Positions 1-63,728 of a stretch of DNA of 63,728 nucleotides are shown here, one piece after another. How positions within the stretch are numbered: position 1 is the stretch's first letter; each line of letters begins with the position of its first letter. The position numbers and the translations under genes are program-made. The notes under the pieces were generated by a model that was not told the DNA's origin, searched no databases, and worked only from the letters and a program-made list of their open reading frames with translations. The stretch comes from a virus. Lineage: Duplodnaviria > Caudoviricetes. The stretch lies in the IMG/VR virus record IMGVR_UViG_3300037294_000424, positions 1 to 63,728 of that record; one strand, written 5' to 3'.

Positions 1-12
1 CTAAAGGCGTAT

Positions 13-128
13 ATACAGAATCAAGACAAGCCAACATAGCTTCGCTATGTACGCTATCCATCTCCCACCAAACTAACTCGCTTAGGCTCCTTAGTTATGG
101 TCGGAGAATTTCGCTAATTCCGTTAAAT
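13..128 (+). repeat. Left copy of 116-bp terminal inverted repeat
   Basis: 13..128 (ATACAGAATCAAG...TTCCGTTAAAT) is the exact reverse complement of 63613..63728. Confidence 0.97.
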
Positions 129-166
129 AGTAATTATCGGGCTTAATCGCCCTGATGGAGTAAACC

Positions 167-784
167 GTGGCTTGTATTACCAGCTTTCCCCCGAGAACTA
201 ACAAAGAGTGCCGCCAGATCTTAACTGAGGTCGATACCATTAACCCAGTGATAGCGCTGATGCTTGAGTTTATGGCCCTAACAGGTCTGAGGTATAGCGA
301 TGTATCGCGGCTTAAGTTTACCGATGTGATGATCAATGGCGTGTTTAGAGACTCGCTAGTCGTGATCCAGATAAAGCCTTTTAATAAGCGTATTGCTGCT
401 GGCGTTAAGGCGAGCATTGCCAAAGAGAGATCTAAGGTTACGCTTTACTTAAACCCTCAATGTAAAGACTTGTTGGCTGATGCGTTAGGGCTGTCTAATC
501 GCAATCTAGGCTTGATATTTGAATCATCAAAAAAAGCAGGTTCACCCTATACGGCACAGTACGTTAACAGAACCCTGAAGGTGGTAGCTGGCAAGCTAAA
601 GCTGACCTTTGCATTGTCTACGCATAGCTTTAGAAAGGCGTTCGCTTTGATGCTTATTAATCAGAACGCCAAGATCCATCAAGTGCGAGACGCCCTAGGC
701 CAATCCTCGCTGGCTTCTACTGATGCCTACCTAAAGACGTTTATTTCTGAAAGCCAAGCCCTAAGTAATAAAATCTCATTTTAG
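167..784 (+). CDS. Tyrosine recombinase, catalytic-domain-only (FimB/FimE-sized)
   Basis: TGLRYSD (R), HSFR (HxxR), LGQ in place of the usual LGH, and TDAY (catalytic Y); 205 aa with no N-terminal core-binding domain. Confidence 0.88.
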   Translation: MACITSFPPRTNKECRQILTEVDTINPVIALMLEFMALTGLRYSDVSRLKFTDVMINGVFRDSLVVIQIKPFNKRIAAGVKASIAKERSKVTLYLNPQCKDLLADALGLSNRNLGLIFESSKKAGSPYTAQYVNRTLKVVAGKLKLTFALSTHSFRKAFALMLINQNAKIHQVRDALGQSSLASTDAYLKTFISESQALSNKISF

Positions 785-795
785 CCAATCCCTTA

Positions 796-820
796 AGCGC
801 CGTGGCCTGCGGCGCTTTAT
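796..820 (+). terminator. Probable intrinsic terminator after the recombinase
   Basis: AAGCGCCG-TGGCCTG-CGGCGCTTT hairpin followed by T-rich tract. Confidence 0.55.
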
Positions 821-882
821 TGCCTCAATTTTAATCAAACGAAGCACTAGCCCTAAAATTTGACAAGTGGTATAACTGCAAT

Positions 883-892
883 ATCCTAACAA
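883..892 (+). promoter_or_regulatory. Putative C1 operator overlapping a sigma70-like promoter
   Basis: ATCCTAACAA motif; TTGACA at 860-865. Confidence 0.65.
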
Positions 893-908
893 GTTCCAGT
901 TATAACAC

Positions 909-1649
909 TTGGGCTTTGTTGAGTGTCAGCAATTGGCTGGCCCGCTTGTTGAGAGCACATTGAAAACATTAATTAAGCCATCGTTTAACGGCACTTCATG
1001 GGATGTAGATAATCATTTCTTAATCGCTAACAATATAAAGGACTCTGCCGAAGTCATTGAAATTGTGAAGCAGATACAAGAAAAGGCCGCCTCTGCTGAT
1101 AGAGCAAGGCAGCAAGGCCTCTATTCAACCGAAGTCATGGTCAGGCACCCAAGGCACAGGCTAAAGATGCTTCATGAATACACAGCCCAAGGCCTCATGT
1201 CCGTTGATAAAGCGTGGAAGATTGCCAGAGATACATGGCTTAATCTCGACGAGGTTTACCCGCACATTGAAGGCTGGGAGTTGTTTTTCTCTGAGTTCGG
1301 CAGTGGTAGCGATGTGTTTATGACGGCCCACGAAAAGGCGCACTTAGACCAGCTACCAGACGAAATAAAGATTTACAGAGGTTATGACAGAAAGCTTAAG
1401 CGAATGGGCCTTAGTTGGACGATGAGCAAGTTTATTGCTAGCCAATATGCTGACAGGTTTAAATCCACAATCTTGGCTCAGGGCGTCGTTAAGAAGTCCG
1501 AGGTGATAGCCTACGTTTCTACTCGGGGGCATCATGAAATCATTCTTAAGTCACGGGCGTCCGTCCTAAATCAAAGAGCCGTAAGCTCAGTGAACGGTGA
1601 AGATGCAATGCGTTGGGTGATTAAGTACAAAGGGAAGCGATTACTATGA
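909..1649 (+). CDS. Hypothetical protein with ADP-ribosyltransferase-like C-terminal motifs
   Basis: IYRG...GLSWT...A..YA...RGHHEII resembles the R-S-E ART signature; start uncertain. Confidence 0.5.
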   Translation: MGFVECQQLAGPLVESTLKTLIKPSFNGTSWDVDNHFLIANNIKDSAEVIEIVKQIQEKAASADRARQQGLYSTEVMVRHPRHRLKMLHEYTAQGLMSVDKAWKIARDTWLNLDEVYPHIEGWELFFSEFGSGSDVFMTAHEKAHLDQLPDEIKIYRGYDRKLKRMGLSWTMSKFIASQYADRFKSTILAQGVVKKSEVIAYVSTRGHHEIILKSRASVLNQRAVSSVNGEDAMRWVIKYKGKRLL

Positions 1650-1873
1650 TAGAGACGCCATTGTCTTATGACTGCAAGCGCCTATGCAAAGCCATTGAAG
1701 AAAGCCCCGAGCTTTTCCCAAGCGGCCCCTTTGGTGTCAGTAGGGTTCAACGGGCGCTAAAAATCGGTTATGACCGAGCGATGACGGCCATGGATGAGGC
1801 TGTTGGCCTCGGTATTCTTAAGCGCGGGAAAAAGCCGTGGCAGTGTGAGGTGGCTAATGGACGAACTCATTAA
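1646..1873 (+). CDS. Stand-alone FtsK gamma (winged-helix) domain protein
   Basis: GVSRVQRALKIGYDRAMTAMDEAVGLGIL matches the FtsK-gamma pattern S..QR.L.IGYNRA...E.....G; ATGA overlap with upstream gene. Confidence 0.75.
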   Translation: MIETPLSYDCKRLCKAIEESPELFPSGPFGVSRVQRALKIGYDRAMTAMDEAVGLGILKRGKKPWQCEVANGRTH

Positions 1874-2021
1874 GATTGTTCACAGCGAAGATGGGGCCGT
1901 TATTTGCTTTCACAGCCCCCATAACACCAAGTATGAGTTTGAAAGCCTAGGGGCGGCATTGGCGGCCCTTCCTACTCTGCCTGAAGCTGGTGGAACGGCC
2001 AAGACAAGGCGGCTGTCATAA
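1857..2021 (+). CDS. Small hypothetical protein
   Basis: GAGG RBS before ATG at 1857; stop overlaps the next start (TAATG). Confidence 0.5.
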   Translation: MDELIKIVHSEDGAVICFHSPHNTKYEFESLGAALAALPTLPEAGGTAKTRRLS

Positions 2022-2215: not shown

Positions 2216-2555
2216 GCCCGCGCTGGCCGCTTTCTTTATTCCCCTCCCTGTAAAGCCCTTACCTCGCCCTAAATCACCCACCTCATTAATCAGTTGCGCT
2301 ATGGGCGCACCCATAGTGATATCGCTTCATTCGTTACTGGGGTCTTTATCCCATTTATTAGGGGTTTTGCGCCCATCCCCTCGAAATTAACCTTAAGAGA
2401 ATTTCTATACGTGATCTGAAATTTAAAAGCCTTTGAGATAAGAATATAATGTCTGCCGCGGTGGTTAACTTGGCGCGCGCGTTAGCTAAGGCGTTACCAA
2501 TAAAGACGTTTGTAGAATTTCTTTCCCGTTTTTTGAATAAAATTAAAATAAAATA

Positions 2556-2653
2556 TTGACGGTGCGATATAGGTGCGATATATTTAAACCGTTCTCAGGG
2601 AACAACTAAGAAGCCCACTGTATTAGTAGGGCGAAAGTTAAGGAAAAAATATC
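2556..2653 (+). promoter_or_regulatory. Promoter plus structured leader, copy 1
   Basis: TTGACG-17bp-TATATT, GGTGCG direct repeats, two hairpins, AAGGA RBS; homologous to 35442..35537. Confidence 0.75.
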
Positions 2654-2887
2654 ATGGCTAATTTTACAATCAACTCCCGTATATTTGGTTTAACTGAATT
2701 TTTTATGCCTGACAATGGCGGTTATGTGCGCATCGAATCGACAGGTAAGTCGGGCACCCTAGCCTCTCAAATTTGCGAGCGTGGCGGCTTTTCTGGCGGC
2801 ACAATATCTGCAACCCCGTCAAATTTTAAAAAATTCTGCAAGCGTTGGCACAAACAGCGCCTACAAAATCGTATTGACGCCGAATAA
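2654..2887 (+). CDS. Small hypothetical protein (anti-defence candidate)
   Basis: 77-aa ORF with strong RBS, inside the IR cassette. Confidence 0.7.
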   Translation: MANFTINSRIFGLTEFFMPDNGGYVRIESTGKSGTLASQICERGGFSGGTISATPSNFKKFCKRWHKQRLQNRIDAE

Positions 2888-2952
2888 TTAACGCTTAATG
2901 GCAGCACTAGCTGCCTTTTATTTATCTAAAATTAATTTTAAAAGGAATTATC

Positions 2953-3357
2953 ATGGCTATCAAAAAATCAGTGCGCTTAGTCGATGACACTATCCGCACT
3001 TGCAATAATCTAACCCAAAGCGGTGACGTAAATTGGTCAGGTTCGCTTAATGCAATGTCTGAACAGTTCAATATACTCATTGAAGAAAATACGCCTTTCT
3101 TTCAACCAGAGCAGTGGACTGTTTTTTATTGCTTGTACAACGGCTACGTATCTCACCCCGACATAAAAGAAGAAGCAAAAAACCTACCGTGGCATGTCAG
3201 CGAGGGCTATCAGTATGATGAACAAGTAAGGCATTTTCTAGGTGATGAAGCTCAATCGGCGGCGTTCGTTGAGGTGCTTAAGCTTATGCCTCTTTCTCAG
3301 AGGTTGGCTGTCATCTATAAGGCACGCGCTTATTGGAGAAACGGTCCAGCGGTTTAG
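2953..3357 (+). CDS. Hypothetical protein, possible ribbon-helix-helix regulator
   Basis: N-terminal KKSVRL alternating strand followed by helices; AAGGA RBS. Confidence 0.6.
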   Translation: MAIKKSVRLVDDTIRTCNNLTQSGDVNWSGSLNAMSEQFNILIEENTPFFQPEQWTVFYCLYNGYVSHPDIKEEAKNLPWHVSEGYQYDEQVRHFLGDEAQSAAFVEVLKLMPLSQRLAVIYKARAYWRNGPAV

Positions 3358-3514
3358 ATGGGCAACCATTCTTTTTGATTTTCATCATCATAACTTATGA
3401 GATTGGTTGAAAAACACTCTTAAGGTTAATTTCGAGGGGATGGGCGCAAAACCCCTATGCGTTAAGCCCCCCCCTCTTGCATGGCCTGCTTTTGATTGGG
3501 GGCTTAATCGCTAC

Positions 3515-50536: not shown

Positions 50537-50585
50537 AAGTTGTTAGGATGTAAATTGCGCCTCAATAGTTACATCCTAACAACTT
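50537..50585. promoter_or_regulatory. Inverted pair of putative C1 operators
   Basis: AAGTTGTTAGGATGTAA (50537-50553) and TTACATCCTAACAACTT (50569-50585) are perfect reverse complements. Confidence 0.75.
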
Positions 50586-57572: not shown

Positions 57573-58628
57573 TTAAGCCTCTTGGTTTTGCAGTAATAAC
57601 CTAACACCTCTGACGATTGCCATTTCTGGCTGTTCAGGAATGTCTACAGTATGGAACCAAGCTTGCGCTTGTTCTTTGAGCCAGTTAGCGCCGCCACCGA
57701 CAAAGACTATTCTAGTCAGCGTGTTTAGGTTTGAGTCGAGCAGCTTCATTATATCTTTGAGCACAAGATCGGATAGGTGCTGAGCAGCCTCAGTGACCAA
57801 GTGAGAAACGTCTATGCGGGCTTTCACGGCATTTTCTTGGGTGCTTGTTGAGCCAACGTAGCCTAGATCAATGATTATCCTTAAATCGGATGCTGAGAGC
57901 GCCTTGACTGCATGTAACCCTAGCGCTTCTGTGTTGCGGTGTAAAAGGGTTTGAAAGTGGTCGATCATGTTGTGGACGCCGTTCTCACTTGTCGCGTAGT
58001 CGATAACCTCAAAGTTGCGGCCCATTAGCGCTAAGTCATTAGAGAACTGGCCCAAGTCTACAATCAGCGTTTTGATATCGTTGGCGTATTCTTCTTTAAT
58101 AGAGCCGTCGCTATTGAGTGCCACGTAAACGTAAGCGGGGATAGCTTCAGGGAAAACAAGAATATTCTTTATCTTAGCTGCGGTCTTTGCTCCGTTGATG
58201 TTAGTCACGGGTGAAAGTATGGACGCCTTTTTCTTGTTAACGAGATCTGTATTGATGGGGGCCACAGCGTCGCCCTTGTTGTAATACTGGGTAGTTGGGA
58301 TTGTGCAGCCTATGATGCACTCTACGCCCCCAAGGCCTGCGGTGGATAGTGTGTCATGGACTAATACCCTGTTAGCTTCTGATATCTGGTATTCACGGTA
58401 GCATGTGGCTTCTGGGTCGCTTGACGCATTACGAACCGTATAACGCTCACCACTTTCACACGCCCATGCTGAGTCGCTTATTCCCGCGACGCCCATTTTT
58501 ACGCCTTTCTCAATTATGGACGGTTGATGGCCTTCAATAAGCGCCCCGTCTTTGTCGGTAAAAGAGTAGGCGATATTGCCCGAGCCGTCGTCTATAGCCA
58601 CTAAAGGTATAAATATTGTGTTTGTCAT
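57573..58628 (-). CDS. parM: ParM/StbA actin-like partition ATPase
   Basis: AIDDGSGN, FPEAIPA, IVDLG and VGGGA actin-fold motifs. Confidence 0.9.
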   Translation of the reverse strand: MTNTIFIPLVAIDDGSGNIAYSFTDKDGALIEGHQPSIIEKGVKMGVAGISDSAWACESGERYTVRNASSDPEATCYREYQISEANRVLVHDTLSTAGLGGVECIIGCTIPTTQYYNKGDAVAPINTDLVNKKKASILSPVTNINGAKTAAKIKNILVFPEAIPAYVYVALNSDGSIKEEYANDIKTLIVDLGQFSNDLALMGRNFEVIDYATSENGVHNMIDHFQTLLHRNTEALGLHAVKALSASDLRIIIDLGYVGSTSTQENAVKARIDVSHLVTEAAQHLSDLVLKDIMKLLDSNLNTLTRIVFVGGGANWLKEQAQAWFHTVDIPEQPEMAIVRGVRLLLQNQEA

Positions 58629-58930
58629 AAGTAAATCCCCGATTAATTGATTGCCAAAAAGCAGCGACAATATAGCAGAAAACACCCTAACAAAAATACA
58701 TATATACGCGAGTTAGTGGCGGGTTTGTTCCACTGTGCCGTGTGGACTATCCAAAATAAGGTTATAAGTGCGCGTGAATACGGAAGAGTACCGCATGTTT
58801 TATGCGGCTTATTGCCGTGTTTTGCCGTCCAAGCTTTGACGCTCTAAGTCGCCACTTGGCCGCTTGGAGTGGATCACGAGCACAAGTCACTGATGGCAGT
58901 AAGCTTGCAATCATGTAGGATATAAGCAAC

Positions 58931-58966: not shown

Positions 58967-60292
58967 ATGTCTAGCAGTCCCAAAAATACGGCTTCTGTCG
59001 ATTGGTGCGCTCATCGAATTGACTACATGGAGAATCACGCTCCAAGTGGTATAAGCGCTAGAAAATACCTAGATAATCAAGACCTTAATGTTAACTCAGG
59101 ACGGCGGCATTTTGCCGCCATGGCAAAGCTTGAGCAAGAGGGGCTTAGCTATGAAGAGATAAGTAAACAGCTCTTCAGCAAGGCCTCAGGGGCGTCTGAG
59201 AGTGGATCAAAAACAAAGGTTAAAAGTGGATCAAAAAGTGGATCACAAAAGAAAGCTGATCCACTTCCTAATAAAGTACGATCCACTTCCAATCCAGCAA
59301 AAGCCTTAAAAAACAAGGACTCTACAGGGGGGGAAGCAGAGAAGGCTTCGCCCCCCGAGAATAAACGATCCAAAACAAGGACACGGTTAACAACTCCGTT
59401 ACAACTGGAATTTATAGACCGTTCCAGTGATTCGCAGATAGGCAACGGCGGGCGGTTTGACTCGGGTAATACGGCAGGCGTTAGAACAGCCGCTTACTTG
59501 AATTTGGTACACGCTCAATCTGACATTGTTGAAACCGTCCTTAGGGCCCGTCTCGGTGATGTGTCGGGTTTAGTGAAGCTAGCAGAAATTAGGTATATCC
59601 AAATGGAGCGCCTGCTAGTTGATCGGCTTGTTGATATCAAGGTGCAGGCTAAAAAGGGTCTGCTTCCCAAAGACCATGAAGGCAATGAGAGAAGTGAAGC
59701 CGACTTAACGCGAGAAGCTATCTGGGGTTCCTCTGGTGTGATGACGGGCTTACTTGGCACATTGACCATGGCACACACTCAGGCCAGCAAAGCGCTTGTT
59801 GATAATGAAATCAAGACGTATCGCTTTGATAGAGATAACTCAGATAGAGCGTTCATGATTGAAATTGCCGAGCGCCGCGCAAATGAAGAGATCACAGCCC
59901 TTACCGCCGCTACCTTGATTGAGGCCAGAGGCTTATCACCTTCCCCAATCATTACTGCTGAAGCACTGAAAGAAATCGAATTGATGAAGCCTAAGGTCGA
60001 TACGTCGGGCATTAGTGATGCCGAGCTTGACGCCTTGGTCGAAGGGTTCATGCAAGAAAAGACTGAAGAAGTCCAAAGCATGGCCGCACGTTCCGCAATT
60101 CTTGAAAGGCTCATATTACAAAGCAATGCTGAGTTAGAAAGCGACGGCTTAGAGGAAAACGAGTTCGCGGAATCAGCTTACACGGGCCTAGAAGACGATG
60201 ATGTGAGTTTTGAGGGCATAGAGGGTGAGCTGCTTGATGATGACGACGAGGATTTTGAATGGGCTGATGATCCCCATAAAGGTAGTGCTTAG
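58967..60292 (+). CDS. pacA: Terminase small subunit (PacA-like)
   Basis: Precedes the large terminase; F..GN motif, acidic tail, internal GATC repeats as in P1 pacA. Confidence 0.8.
   Translation: MSSSPKNTASVDWCAHRIDYMENHAPSGISARKYLDNQDLNVNSGRRHFAAMAKLEQEGLSYEEISKQLFSKASGASESGSKTKVKSGSKSGSQKKADPLPNKVRSTSNPAKALKNKDSTGGEAEKASPPENKRSKTRTRLTTPLQLEFIDRSSDSQIGNGGRFDSGNTAGVRTAAYLNLVHAQSDIVETVLRARLGDVSGLVKLAEIRYIQMERLLVDRLVDIKVQAKKGLLPKDHEGNERSEADLTREAIWGSSGVMTGLLGTLTMAHTQASKALVDNEIKTYRFDRDNSDRAFMIEIAERRANEEITALTAATLIEARGLSPSPIITAEALKEIELMKPKVDTSGISDAELDALVEGFMQEKTEEVQSMAARSAILERLILQSNAELESDGLEENEFAESAYTGLEDDDVSFEGIEGELLDDDDEDFEWADDPHKGSA
59201..59288. other. Putative pac site
   Basis: AGTGGATCA at 59201, 59225 and 59237; inverted GATCCACTT at 59258 and 59280. 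Confidence 0.7.
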
Positions 60293-60294
60293 CT

Positions 60295-61782
60295 GTGGCG
60301 GTAATTAAATCAATAAGAACAGATCCGCGCTGGGTGGAGCTGGTTAAGCGGTATCGCCATAACTGGACGTTGGCCCCTGTTGAGCTTTTTGGCTTTAAGC
60401 CGAAGGTGCAACAGCTAGAGCTTTTAAGTGCAACTCAAAAAGTAGGGTGCCGTGTAAGCGTGTCGTCGGGCCACGGTACGGGTAAATCTTCTCAGATCGC
60501 GATTGTCGTTATCATCTACATGCTAGTTTACCCTGAGGCCCGTGTGATTCTGGTAGCTAACAAGCTAGATCAGGTCAAAATTGCGGTAATGAAAAACATC
60601 AAGATTTACTGGCTTGAGCTAATAAAGTTTCACCCGTGGATAGAGGGCTATTTTGTCTTAACTGGGCAGACTTTTTATGAGCGGGCCAGTAAGGGTATAT
60701 GGGAGCTTTCCCCTAAAGCGTGTAAAGTTGGCAACGAAGAGGCATTAGCGGGTGAACATGCTAAACACATGCTATGGATTGTTGATGAGGCCTCAGGTCT
60801 CAGCGATAAGGCCTTTGGTGTTATCACTGGCTCATTAACAGAAGATGACAATAGGTTGGTGTTGCTGTCACAGCCAACACGCGATAGCGGCTTCTTTTGG
60901 CAGACTCACAACGATCCGTCAATCATGAAAGACTGGGTTAGCCTTGTATTTAACGCTGAAGATTCCCCGCTCGTTACCATGAAGTTTCTCATGGAGAAAT
61001 TCAGGCAGTACGGTAATGATAGGGACTCGCCCGAGTACATGATAAAAGTGCGTGGCCTGTTCCCCAAAGATTATAAAGGCTACTTGCTTACTGCTGAAGA
61101 TATGCTTAAGGCCACTAGGGCTAGACCTAAGCTGTTGAAATCGTCTTGTGGCTGGGTTATTACCTGTGACGTTGGTAACGGTCGTGATAGCTCTGTGGTT
61201 AACATTAACCGTGTCTCAGGCGATGGTGACGAGCGACGTTCTATAAACCATGAAGTGATAGAGTTTACGGGTAGCATGGATCCTGTTGATTTTGGTCGTG
61301 AGATTATCAGTATCGTTCGCTCGGGGCTTTACCCTAATGTGTCCATTGGTATTGATGCTGACGGCGCGGGAGGCTCAACGTGTAAGATTGTCGAAGAGGC
61401 GGGGATTGCCGTTACTCGTATTCACTGGGGCGATCCTTGTTTCTCTAAAGAAGAAAAACGACGGTTTTATAATAAGCGAGCGATGGCGACCGTTTACGCT
61501 AAGGACGCGATACGATCAGGCCGTATGCGTATCGACAAACACATTAAAACACGCCTGCAAGGGTCTAGGATCCCGTATAAAATTGATGATATGGGCCGTT
61601 ATCTTATTGAGCAAAAGAAAGTCATGCGCGAGAAGATGAACTTGCCATCGCCAGATAGGTTCGATACCTATTGTTTTGTGTTCTTGATGGATGTGACGCC
61701 AGCAAACGCAGAAGTTGAAGAATACACGATGGAAGATAGAGAGGCTGCTGGTGGGTGGACTAAAGAAGTTACCCGCGCCTAG
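60295..61782 (+). CDS. pacB: Terminase large subunit (PacB)
   Basis: SGHGTGKS Walker A, WIVDEASG Walker B, nuclease DVG/IDADG/SPDRFD. Confidence 0.93.
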   Translation: MAVIKSIRTDPRWVELVKRYRHNWTLAPVELFGFKPKVQQLELLSATQKVGCRVSVSSGHGTGKSSQIAIVVIIYMLVYPEARVILVANKLDQVKIAVMKNIKIYWLELIKFHPWIEGYFVLTGQTFYERASKGIWELSPKACKVGNEEALAGEHAKHMLWIVDEASGLSDKAFGVITGSLTEDDNRLVLLSQPTRDSGFFWQTHNDPSIMKDWVSLVFNAEDSPLVTMKFLMEKFRQYGNDRDSPEYMIKVRGLFPKDYKGYLLTAEDMLKATRARPKLLKSSCGWVITCDVGNGRDSSVVNINRVSGDGDERRSINHEVIEFTGSMDPVDFGREIISIVRSGLYPNVSIGIDADGAGGSTCKIVEEAGIAVTRIHWGDPCFSKEEKRRFYNKRAMATVYAKDAIRSGRMRIDKHIKTRLQGSRIPYKIDDMGRYLIEQKKVMREKMNLPSPDRFDTYCFVFLMDVTPANAEVEEYTMEDREAAGGWTKEVTRA

Positions 61783-61804: not shown

Positions 61805-62590
61805 CTATTTTTTTGCAGTGGTGAGGTCGTCGGCTTCCTTTGCCGCCTGATTGCGCTCTGCCACGGCTGATAGTTTGGCGTTTTCTAAGTCTGATATTCT
61901 AAATAGGCGGCACCTTCTAACAAGTGAGTACCTTACCGCCTTCACTCCGAGGTTTTTAACCTTGTCGCCACGGTTGCGGCCCTTGGTGGATTGAGGCTGA
62001 TTAATCTTACATGAGTTATTAGGGTCAAAGATAAAGATACCAGCGAATGGGACTCTTATCTTTTCAAACTCTACGTCTTTATCTGAACGAATGAGCAACA
62101 AGATCTCAGTGTAGCCCTCAGAGCGTAAGCGATAAGTCTCTTCTGTTTCAGCCTTAAAGAAGGATATTTCCCTGTCTAACCTAGCTATTGCTGTGCTTGT
62201 CTCTTTACCGCTACTAATTTTTTCAGCCGTCCGTGCCTTCCTCAGTCGCCTGAGAATGTCGTCCCTATTTATTTTACGGGTGCTGGTGGCCTCATTAACG
62301 ATAATGTTAGCTTCACTGAGTCCGTAGAGCACTTTAGGCTCAGGCGAGAAGATGACAGATGAGCGGTTAAATCGGTGTGGCGATTCATCGCATAGCTGGT
62401 CAGCTAAGACTTGCCACTTTGCGATAAGCTTGTTTATTTCTGTTAACTCTTTTGCTGCTGTTATTCTAACCACTGGGCGCACACGTTCCCCGTCTCGCTT
62501 TTCGCTAAATACGGCGTTAGATAAGGCGTTATCAATGAGTTGCTTCCGCAGTTCCAAGAACTTTGAGTATGCTGTGAATTGTTCCATCAA
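61805..62590 (-). CDS. c1: C1 primary repressor homologue
   Basis: DGERVRPVV, KW, YRLRSEGYTE, GIFIFD and LFRISDLEN align with recalled P1 C1 segments (DGRPVRPVV, FRMRVHGFSE, GVFICD, IYRLADIEN); convergent with pacB as in P1. Confidence 0.85.
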   Translation of the reverse strand: MMEQFTAYSKFLELRKQLIDNALSNAVFSEKRDGERVRPVVRITAAKELTEINKLIAKWQVLADQLCDESPHRFNRSSVIFSPEPKVLYGLSEANIIVNEATSTRKINRDDILRRLRKARTAEKISSGKETSTAIARLDREISFFKAETEETYRLRSEGYTEILLLIRSDKDVEFEKIRVPFAGIFIFDPNNSCKINQPQSTKGRNRGDKVKNLGVKAVRYSLVRRCRLFRISDLENAKLSAVAERNQAAKEADDLTTAKK

Positions 62591-62715: not shown

Positions 62716-63051
62716 TTAAGTGAGCTTTTTCATTATTACGTCACAGATAATGAACGCAATAAAAAAAGAAGTCAGTCCTATGGTGAAATGCAACCCGCTC
62801 GCAGTCTGCGCTATAACCTCACTCGCTATCGCGGTGATAAAAAAACAGGCTGAGAACAAGGCTAGTTCGATTAATCGTATGTTTAGCACGGCTATTATAA
62901 ATAGCAATAATCCCACAATGATCATGGCGAATGTTTCACGCACTATAGGGGGCATTGCCACAGCTATAATATTTGAGGTTGCCAGTCCAATGAGGGAGCC
63001 TGCAATCATAGAACAAATAACATTGATTGCTGTAGGCTTGGCTTTAATCAT
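62716..63051 (-). CDS. Four-TM membrane protein (possible superinfection exclusion)
   Basis: ATG at 63051 overlaps the upstream TGA; almost wholly hydrophobic 111 aa. Confidence 0.55.
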   Translation of the reverse strand: MIKAKPTAINVICSMIAGSLIGLATSNIIAVAMPPIVRETFAMIIVGLLLFIIAVLNIRLIELALFSACFFITAIASEVIAQTASGLHFTIGLTSFFIAFIICDVIMKKLT

Positions 63052-63290
63052 AGATAGGTTATCTCGTACTCTATTGCTGTTAGATAATCCGTCAAATGTC
63101 GTGAGAACTGCTGTATCTGACAAATAGCTTCTTTTGTGGTCAGGTGCTCTGCTAGCCCCTGTGTAAAGCACTGTAATATTAAATTAAATGTATTAGACGG
63201 AGGTTCGTTCATATCCATAGCATTTTTAAACAATGTATCAATGTCGCAATCCGACGCCTGAGCGTAGCTAGTTGTGTTCGGGTCGTGCAT
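63048..63290 (-). CDS. Small acidic protein in the position of P1 coi
   Basis: AGGGA RBS; upstream of c1, below an operator at 63504. Confidence 0.5.
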   Translation of the reverse strand: MHDPNTTSYAQASDCDIDTLFKNAMDMNEPPSNTFNLILQCFTQGLAEHLTTKEAICQIQQFSRHLTDYLTAIEYEITYL

Positions 63291-63503: not shown

Positions 63504-63513
63504 TTGTTAGGAT
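63504..63513 (-). promoter_or_regulatory. Putative C1 operator
   Basis: TTTGTTAGGATAAA in AT-rich promoter region. Confidence 0.6.
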
Positions 63514-63612
63514 AAATATTTATTGCCCACTTTACATATCGGGGTTAACTTAGTCGTCAACGCAGGTTCGCGTTTGGCAGATGTGAGGTTTCTCGGGTGA
63601 AATCATTAGACG

Positions 63613-63728
63613 ATTTAACGGAATTAGCGAAATTCTCCGACCATAACTAAGGAGCCTAAGCGAGTTAGTTTGGTGGGAGATGGATAGCGTACATAGCGAA
63701 GCTATGTTGGCTTGTCTTGATTCTGTAT
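63613..63728 (-). repeat. Right copy of 116-bp terminal inverted repeat
   Basis: Exact reverse complement of 13..128. Confidence 0.97.

Follow-up and report, generated by a model that had tools for sequence, protein, structure and literature searches.

The window (the whole 63,728-bp stretch analysed here, an IMG/VR virus record) is very probably the unique part of a circular phage-plasmid, with ends formed by two inverted copies of a multicopy repeat that broke the assembly. According to the mechanism proposed here, a unique part of 63.5 kb in a circular P1-like phage-plasmid would end in two inverted, identical repeat copies of at least 1.37 kb. The copies would be impassable to the assembler, so that each contig end would keep only a k-mer-sized overhang, and the two overhangs together would give the appearance of a '116-bp terminal inverted repeat'. 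The copies would bracket a segment missing from the contig, at the position where relatives join the c1 side to a recombinase gene, and where the closest relative (G001) carries 14.8 kb of accessory genes.

Results

Gene content of the window

IMG/VR classes the record as 'linear', and CheckV puts its completeness at 64%. The ten largest ORFs were scanned against PHROG and Pfam, which identified tail sheath, baseplate and portal proteins, DarA_N and DarA_C domains, a ddrB-ParB protein and a DarB-like methyltransferase/helicase of 2250 aa. With the PacB-like and C1-like ORFs (Table 1), the window has, arranged as in P1, P1-type genes for structure, anti-restriction, packaging and immunity, which bears out the P1-like character that a sequence-only reading had assigned to the genome. 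Further ORFs encode a ParM/StbA ATPase, a RepL/O-like initiator with an HTH_36 domain, RdgC and an MT-A70 methylase. The likeness to P1 itself is at the profile level only, and there was no DNA-level match to the window among 50,697 phage records. Judged from its genes and relatives, the element is best described as a distant P1-like phage-plasmid, predicted to be circular and of marine or salt-lake origin. P1-like plasmid prophages of marine bacteria (Vibrio pVv01, p0908) have been published before (PMC4132613).

The C1-like ORF scores 42.5 bits, far under the 500-bit cut-off of its family, and is therefore termed a distant homologue; in this form, the c1 gene expected near the right end is present. 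C1-like homologues occupy the equivalent position in all five related virus records. The PacB-like ORF had no match in Pfam and NCBIfam scans, and the ORF in the equivalent position carries a 'terminase' annotation in the circular plasmids pMR24a and p1_510. The neighbouring 441-aa ORF was likewise without a family match in Pfam and NCBIfam.

The motif TTGTTAGGAT occurs in 10 exact copies in the window, compared to 0.13 expected, at positions 883, 3515, 50540, 50573, 53291, 53963, 55689, 56703, 58931 and 63504. Most copies are intergenic, and two of them lie in inverted orientation inside a palindrome (50537-50585) whose arms are 19 nt long. The motif is also present in the c1-side intergenic regions of relatives, and is a candidate operator of the C1-like repressor.

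Table 1. Features at and near the ends of the window
Feature	Position	Strand	Evidence or remark
Repeat terminus, left copy (final 127 nt; whole repeat at least 1374 nt)	1..127	.	Logan contig record 1
Tyrosine recombinase, 205 aa, catalytic domain only	167..784	+	PF00589, residues 11-190, E 7.8e-16
ParM/StbA-type segregation ATPase	57573..58685	-	PF06406, E 2.3e-19; 74% identical in closest relative
441-aa ORF in PacA position, by position only	58967..60292	+	colinear with closest relative
PacB-like large terminase subunit	60295..61782	+	79% identity to closest relative, 47-50% to four others
C1 repressor, distant homologue	61805..62590	-	NCBIfam phage_rep_C1 NF041318, whole length, E 5.4e-11
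Two small ORFs (151-aa membrane-like, 80-aa) between c1-like gene and repeat	62716..63290	-	conserved with closest relative
TTGTTAGGAT copy, candidate operator, intergenic beside right repeat copy	63504..63513	+	1 of 10 exact copies
Repeat terminus, inverted right copy	63613..63728	.	reverse complement of 13-128; interior past right contig end

The inverted match of the contig ends

A repeat search found inverted arms at 13-131 and 63610-63728 (119 nt, 99% complementary, one mismatch), and blastn aligned 13-128 with 63728-63613 at 116/116 identity, confirming the inverted match from which the sequence-only reading had started. A perfect inverted match of 116 nt within 64 kb is far beyond chance. 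The 116-nt sequence has no further copy inside the window, according to blastn. Bases 9-16 are GTATATAC, and the right end halts at the base that pairs with position 13, so that it does stop at the centre of a GTAT/ATAC dyad as had been observed. Bases 1-8 are not a fold-back of bases 17-24.

The left contig end comprises exactly 127 nt of the repeat. This number is, as we assume, the usual largest k in JGI metaSPAdes settings, and it fits an overhang left where the assembly graph broke at a repeat. The right contig end falls 12 nt short of the left one, a fact that counts against an assembly break at the repeat. A promoter scan of positions 1-166 found no sigma-70-like promoter.

Contigs of a separate assembly at the left end

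The sole public DNA run that holds the window is X1, a salt lake metagenome, which is stored as Logan contigs, a separate k=31 assembly. As this run may be the window's own source sample, it provides an independent assembly, not independent data. Its contigs were compared with window positions 1-2000 (Table 2).

Table 2. Logan contigs of run X1 that match the left end of the window
Record	Length (nt)	Depth	Window positions	Relation to the window
1	1374	43.5	1-127	extends 1247 nt past position 1
2	31	33	98-128	31-mer common to both window flanks
3	5406	15.5	98-127	third flank, joined at 127
4	2290	17.7	99-2000	left unique sequence, continues past 2000
5	27075	14.2	99-128	window's right end, joined at 128

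Three different flanks diverge at 127/128, namely the left side of the window, its right side (record 5, whose loose end matches 63583-63612 in reverse complement) and a third contig. Because the repeat extends past the contig end and has three flanks, the 'terminal inverted repeat' consists of the final 127 nt of a repeat that measures at least 1374 nt. Moreover, both unique ends meet the same terminus in inverted orientation, and the replicon would therefore have two inverted copies that bracket a missing part.

The depth of the repeat is 43.5, compared to 14-18 in the flanks, about threefold, although depth is a rough guide only. The two window flanks sum to 31.9 (17.7 + 14.2), compared to 33 for the shared 31-mer, and all three flanks sum to 47.4, compared to 43.5 for the repeat. 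A summed contig depth is not a copy number, but the depths fit three repeat copies and the presence of both window junctions in every molecule. An amplification chimera was considered as the origin of the right end, and is unlikely because both junctions are at full depth. The flank in record 3 is absent from the window, from the viral contigs and from all relative loci retrieved; it could belong to a strain variant or to the chromosome of the host. With three flanks and a roughly threefold depth, the repeat is the case that the sequence-only reading had named as grounds for giving up its proposal, namely a multicopy repeat that broke the assembly.

Nature of the repeat

The size of the repeat, the identity of its copies and their several contexts, with three flanks at one terminus, suggest an insertion sequence, and 127 nt of it are visible in the window. 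A possible minus-strand ORF has its start at window position 61 and runs on into the repeat, with 20 codons visible. With one terminus visible, there was no convincing target duplication at the inner boundary of the repeat.

Searches for related sequences returned nothing. A blastn and tblastn comparison of 131 nt of the repeat and two reading frames with plasmids gave no match, and blastn did not find the repeat sequence in any of the relatives. A 42-aa repeat frame had no relative among 5.8 billion proteins. A 22-mer of the repeat was absent from 185,579 species genomes, and longer exact words were absent from viral and metagenome contigs, in scans that possibly did not include the window's own record. 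The idea that the repeat tip is a diverged half-site of the palindromes of the recombinase family (see below) was dropped, since the two have only a hexamer in common.

Relatives and the missing segment

By tblastn, the recombinase family is present in 34 plasmid records, of which 27 are from Vibrio, 3 from Photobacterium, 1 from Moritella and 3 from other sources. Two circular plasmids, pMR24a (72.9 kb) and p1_510 (88 kb), share the order terminase, minus-strand ORF of ~265 aa, spacer of ~1.2 kb, small recombinase, and tail/baseplate genes. PacB, a c1-like gene and the recombinase gene are adjacent in all five related IMG/VR records, three of which have direct terminal repeats. The gap between the c1-like gene and the recombinase gene is 1.6 kb in two records, 2.8 and 3.2 kb in two others, and 15.6 kb in G001. 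Going by this gene order, the two contig ends of the window correspond to neighbours in the circular relatives.

G001, a record of 80.9 kb with direct terminal repeats, is the closest relative and has a recombinase 72% and a PacB 79% identical to those of the window. By tblastx, it is colinear with the entire window except for 27.3-42.1 kb of G001, exactly at the window's break. This 14.8-kb cargo, between the c1 side and the recombinase gene, contains a second, degenerate recombinase-like ORF, a 999-aa ORF, DndB, a ParA-like ORF with seven 24-bp repeats, the palindrome of the recombinase family and a toxin-antitoxin-like pair that is named from translations alone. The window already holds ParM and a RepL/O-like initiator, and hence its missing segment need not be large.

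Several details of the cargo may be added. The second recombinase-like ORF (L035:4690-5313, 207 aa) is degenerate (PF00589 E 1.4e-4, under the cut-off) and lies at the c1 side, so that the G001 cargo is flanked by two small recombinase genes in direct orientation. The seven 24-bp direct repeats (L035:14932-15145) follow the ParA-like gene and are likely a centromere. The palindrome of G001 (L035:15470-15499) lies 325 bp beyond these repeats, which places the candidate resolution site next to the partition locus within the cargo.

The non-coding motif TTTCTCGGGTGA occurs at window positions 63592-63603 and in the Moritella plasmid pMR24a (L003:7113-7124), in both cases in the c1-side intergenic region. 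A lox-like palindrome follows ~30 nt on in pMR24a, and the repeat terminus follows 10 nt on in the window. Given this spacing, the insertion point of the repeat may lie close to the ancestral site.

The 205-aa recombinase

The recombinase ORF has a GTG start 39 nt from the left repeat, as had been reported, and is the sole PF00589 match in the window. Its family, of ~204 aa, comprises 35 proteins with E <= 0.001 among 434 candidates, 30 of which are 43-78% identical to it. In an alignment of 31 members, R42, K70, H153, R156 and Y188 are invariant, and position 179 is Q in the window and H or Q in the relatives. By alignment and PF00589 match, the protein thus has the complete catalytic set of a tyrosine recombinase. 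A core-binding domain at the N-terminus, as in Cre, is absent, since the catalytic domain starts at residue 11 of 205.

The AlphaFold model of the recombinase has a pLDDT of 88. Its best fold matches in the PDB are catalytic domains, those of XerA (5hxy, E 4e-8), staphylococcal integrase, XerH, IntI4, lambda Int and Cre (3crx, E 7.6e-5), and a sequence-profile search against the PDB agrees with them. The targets aligned by Foldseek are 60-150 residues longer than the recombinase. The best NCBIfam matches are XerA, XerD and XerC, all far under cut-off, and none is specific for Fim proteins.

The recombinase gene lies between the c1/pac genes and the next block, in the position of cre. The sequence-only reading had seen there a replacement of the P1 module; the 205-aa recombinase at the cre position stands, and the inverted ends are an assembly break and not a part of a replacement module. 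The recombinase is unrelated to the repeat, and nothing links the two. By analogy, its role is on balance probably Cre-like, in the resolution of multimers or the cyclisation of infecting DNA.

The Vibrio plasmid p0908 encodes two tyrosine recombinases, one of 380 aa (L203:10456-11598) and one of 213 aa (L203:15641-16282). The smaller is 26% identical to that of the window, and the larger is without BLASTP similarity to it. As p0908 encodes both, a small enzyme can occur side by side with a Cre-like one, and the small enzymes may act otherwise, which weakens the simple view of a 'Cre replacement'. Small recombinases may be widespread in marine P1-like plasmids beside Cre-like enzymes.

Lox-like palindromes of the family

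Ten relatives, with recombinases at least 42% identical to that of the window, had enough upstream sequence for analysis (L003, L004, G001, L006, L007, L008, L009, L010, L039 and L121). All ten have a palindrome within 3.7 kb upstream of the recombinase gene, with arms of 12 to 18 nt and a centre of 0-6 nt. A TTCAAG...CTTGAA core is present in seven of them (the right arm in G001 is CTAGAA), and a TTAGTTTCA...TGAAACTAA palindrome is common to three. The palindrome of G001, TAGGTTCAAGAATAccTATTCTAGAACCTA, belongs to the class TAGGTTCAAG..CTTGAACCTA and occurs once within the ~78 kb examined of 81 kb. In a FastTree phylogeny of 13 recombinases, in which G001 is the sister of the window, the type of palindrome follows the recombinase clade, with only about four independent contrasts. 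The sequence-only reading had raised the question of whether homologues of the recombinase abut long inverted repeats. In the relatives examined, there is no long inverted repeat upstream of the gene, and short palindromes are found instead.

In contrast to the ten relatives, the window has no palindromic target site beside the gene. The pattern TTCAAGN{6,14}CTTGAA has no match in the window, and neither does the 28-nt palindrome motif, even at 3 mismatches. Since the relatives carry the palindrome and the window does not, the recombinase site of this phage probably lies in the missing segment. Independently of the repeat, the recombinase would then pair with a single lox-like palindrome of ~30 bp, and would resolve multimers or cyclise DNA. 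A small recombinase family with co-varying palindromes was not found in the open-access papers searched.

We also consider a further, tentative proposal, namely that the ~205-aa recombinases and the clade-specific palindromes of ~30 bp form a minimal Cre/lox-like system, and that with the site of this phage in a repeat-bracketed cargo the maintenance and cargo module as a whole could flip or be swapped like a cassette. We regard this as possible, but less likely than not.

A probable mini-element at 2359-3457

The window contains, at 2359-3457, a 46-nt inverted repeat pair (96% complementary) that encloses 1.0 kb of sequence and, in it, two small ORFs (77 and 134 aa). Each arm begins with GGGG and ends with TAAG, which we take to be like the ends of the Tn3 family. 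Matches to the arms, of 35-97 nt at 89-100%, occur in 8 marine plasmids, and in 3 of these the match lies under a 'recombinase family protein' gene. The region is probably a miniature Tn3-derived element. Its flanks, TATTA and TATGC, do not form a clean 5-bp duplication. The left arm is also where Logan record 4 ends, near window position 2388. In a plasmid and phage megablast of both window ends, the sole match was to an unrelated short mobile element, at 2357-2454.

Discussion

The inverted ends of the window invite several other explanations. Native long inverted repeats, and not an insertion sequence, could enclose a segment that either homologous recombination or the small recombinase inverts, similar to the 2-micron plasmid or the P1 C-segment. 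Both unique ends do meet the same repeat terminus in inverted orientation, and a FimB-sized tyrosine recombinase does start right beside one copy. However, the third flank at this terminus indicates a dispersed element, and each unique flank has one junction at full depth at the visible terminus. In addition, relatives with the same recombinase lack a long inverted repeat, G001 having one short palindrome, and the repeat sequence is found in none of them. Such a flip is therefore unlikely. Of the earlier suggestion that an inverted-repeat-bounded segment missing from the contig is flipped by the recombinase, the missing segment is retained; its link to the enzyme is not, as the repeat is multicopy and unrelated to the likely site of the recombinase.

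The contig could also be a complete circle whose closing junction is a ~244-bp palindrome around a 12-nt centre, as had been proposed. The distance from the c1-like gene to the recombinase gene would then be ~1.06 kb without the overhangs (~1.3 kb with them), compared to 1.16 kb in pMR24a, and replication and partition genes are inside the window. Nevertheless, the 12 'centre' bases turn out to be further repeat sequence of the 1374-nt contig: left of position 13, 1259 nt continue as one contig and do not enter the right end, and no contig in the Logan assembly of run X1 joins 63728 to 1. The lox-like site of the family would moreover be absent from such a circle, which we consider highly improbable. 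A linear prophage whose inverted terminal repeats end in hairpins or protein caps, suggested by the inverted repeats at the contig ends and the dyad at 9-16, is just as hard to maintain. The sequence continues unbranched past the contig end, and bases 1-8 do not fold back on bases 17-24. The sequence-only reading had noted that no protelomerase is encoded, and indeed the ResT/TelK catalytic domain PF16684 is absent from the window. Furthermore, the relatives are either circular plasmids or records that carry direct terminal repeats, and PacB-type headful packaging is present. An assembly break at two inverted copies of a multicopy repeat is the explanation that we retain, and an unusual maintenance system for a P1-like phage-plasmid, which had been expected from the inverted ends, is not seen.

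An inverted layout of multicopy repeats is a classic cause of contig breaks. In Tn10 and Tn5, segments are bounded by inverted insertion sequence copies, in the geometry of a composite transposon. The window resembles them in that two identical inverted copies of at least 1.37 kb would enclose a segment, and another copy lies in a third context. It differs in that its visible 127 nt are without a match in the collections searched, and that no transposase, terminal inverted repeat or target duplication was seen. The similarity to telRL and TelN of N15 is only a superficial inverted symmetry of the contig ends, as the window is without a protelomerase, its ends are not physical, and the centre is not palindromic. 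With the FimB and FimE invertases, the recombinase shares its size of ~200 aa. The catalytic arginine of FimB is near residue 45, and that of the window's protein is R42. In contrast to the two inverted sites around the fim switch, the relatives of the window show one palindrome.

A further system for comparison is Cre/loxP of P1. The recombinase of the window adjoins the c1 and pac genes and has kept the catalytic R, K, H, R and Y, and its relatives carry a single palindromic site near the gene. Cre has ~343 aa. The protein of the window, in contrast, has 205 aa and no N-terminal DNA-binding domain, and the candidate sites of the relatives have arms of 12 to 18 nt around a centre of 0-6 nt, unlike the 13+8+13 arrangement of lox; in the window, a site is missing. 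VCre/VloxP (from Vibrio p0908), SCre/SloxP, Vika/vox and Nigri/nox are Cre-like systems of marine phage-plasmids (PMC4957104). They are likewise recombinase-plus-palindrome modules of marine P1-like phage-plasmids, but VCre, SCre, Vika and Nigri are full-size enzymes (Nigri has 460 aa; PMC4957104), compared to 205 aa in the window.

The main value of the analysis is negative. The terminal inverted repeats are an assembly break in a multicopy repeat, and not a new telomere or maintenance mechanism. 'ITR' signals at the ends of metagenomic virus contigs should be checked against reads before they are interpreted. Contig breaks at repeats are routine, and neither marine P1-like phage-plasmids nor the Cre-like systems that they carry are new. 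A modest lead comes from the tyrosine recombinases of ~205 aa that, together with co-varying short palindromes, lie at the position of cre in marine P1-like phage-plasmids. Provided that they are active, these recombinases and their palindromes would be unusually small pairs of a site-specific recombinase and its target.
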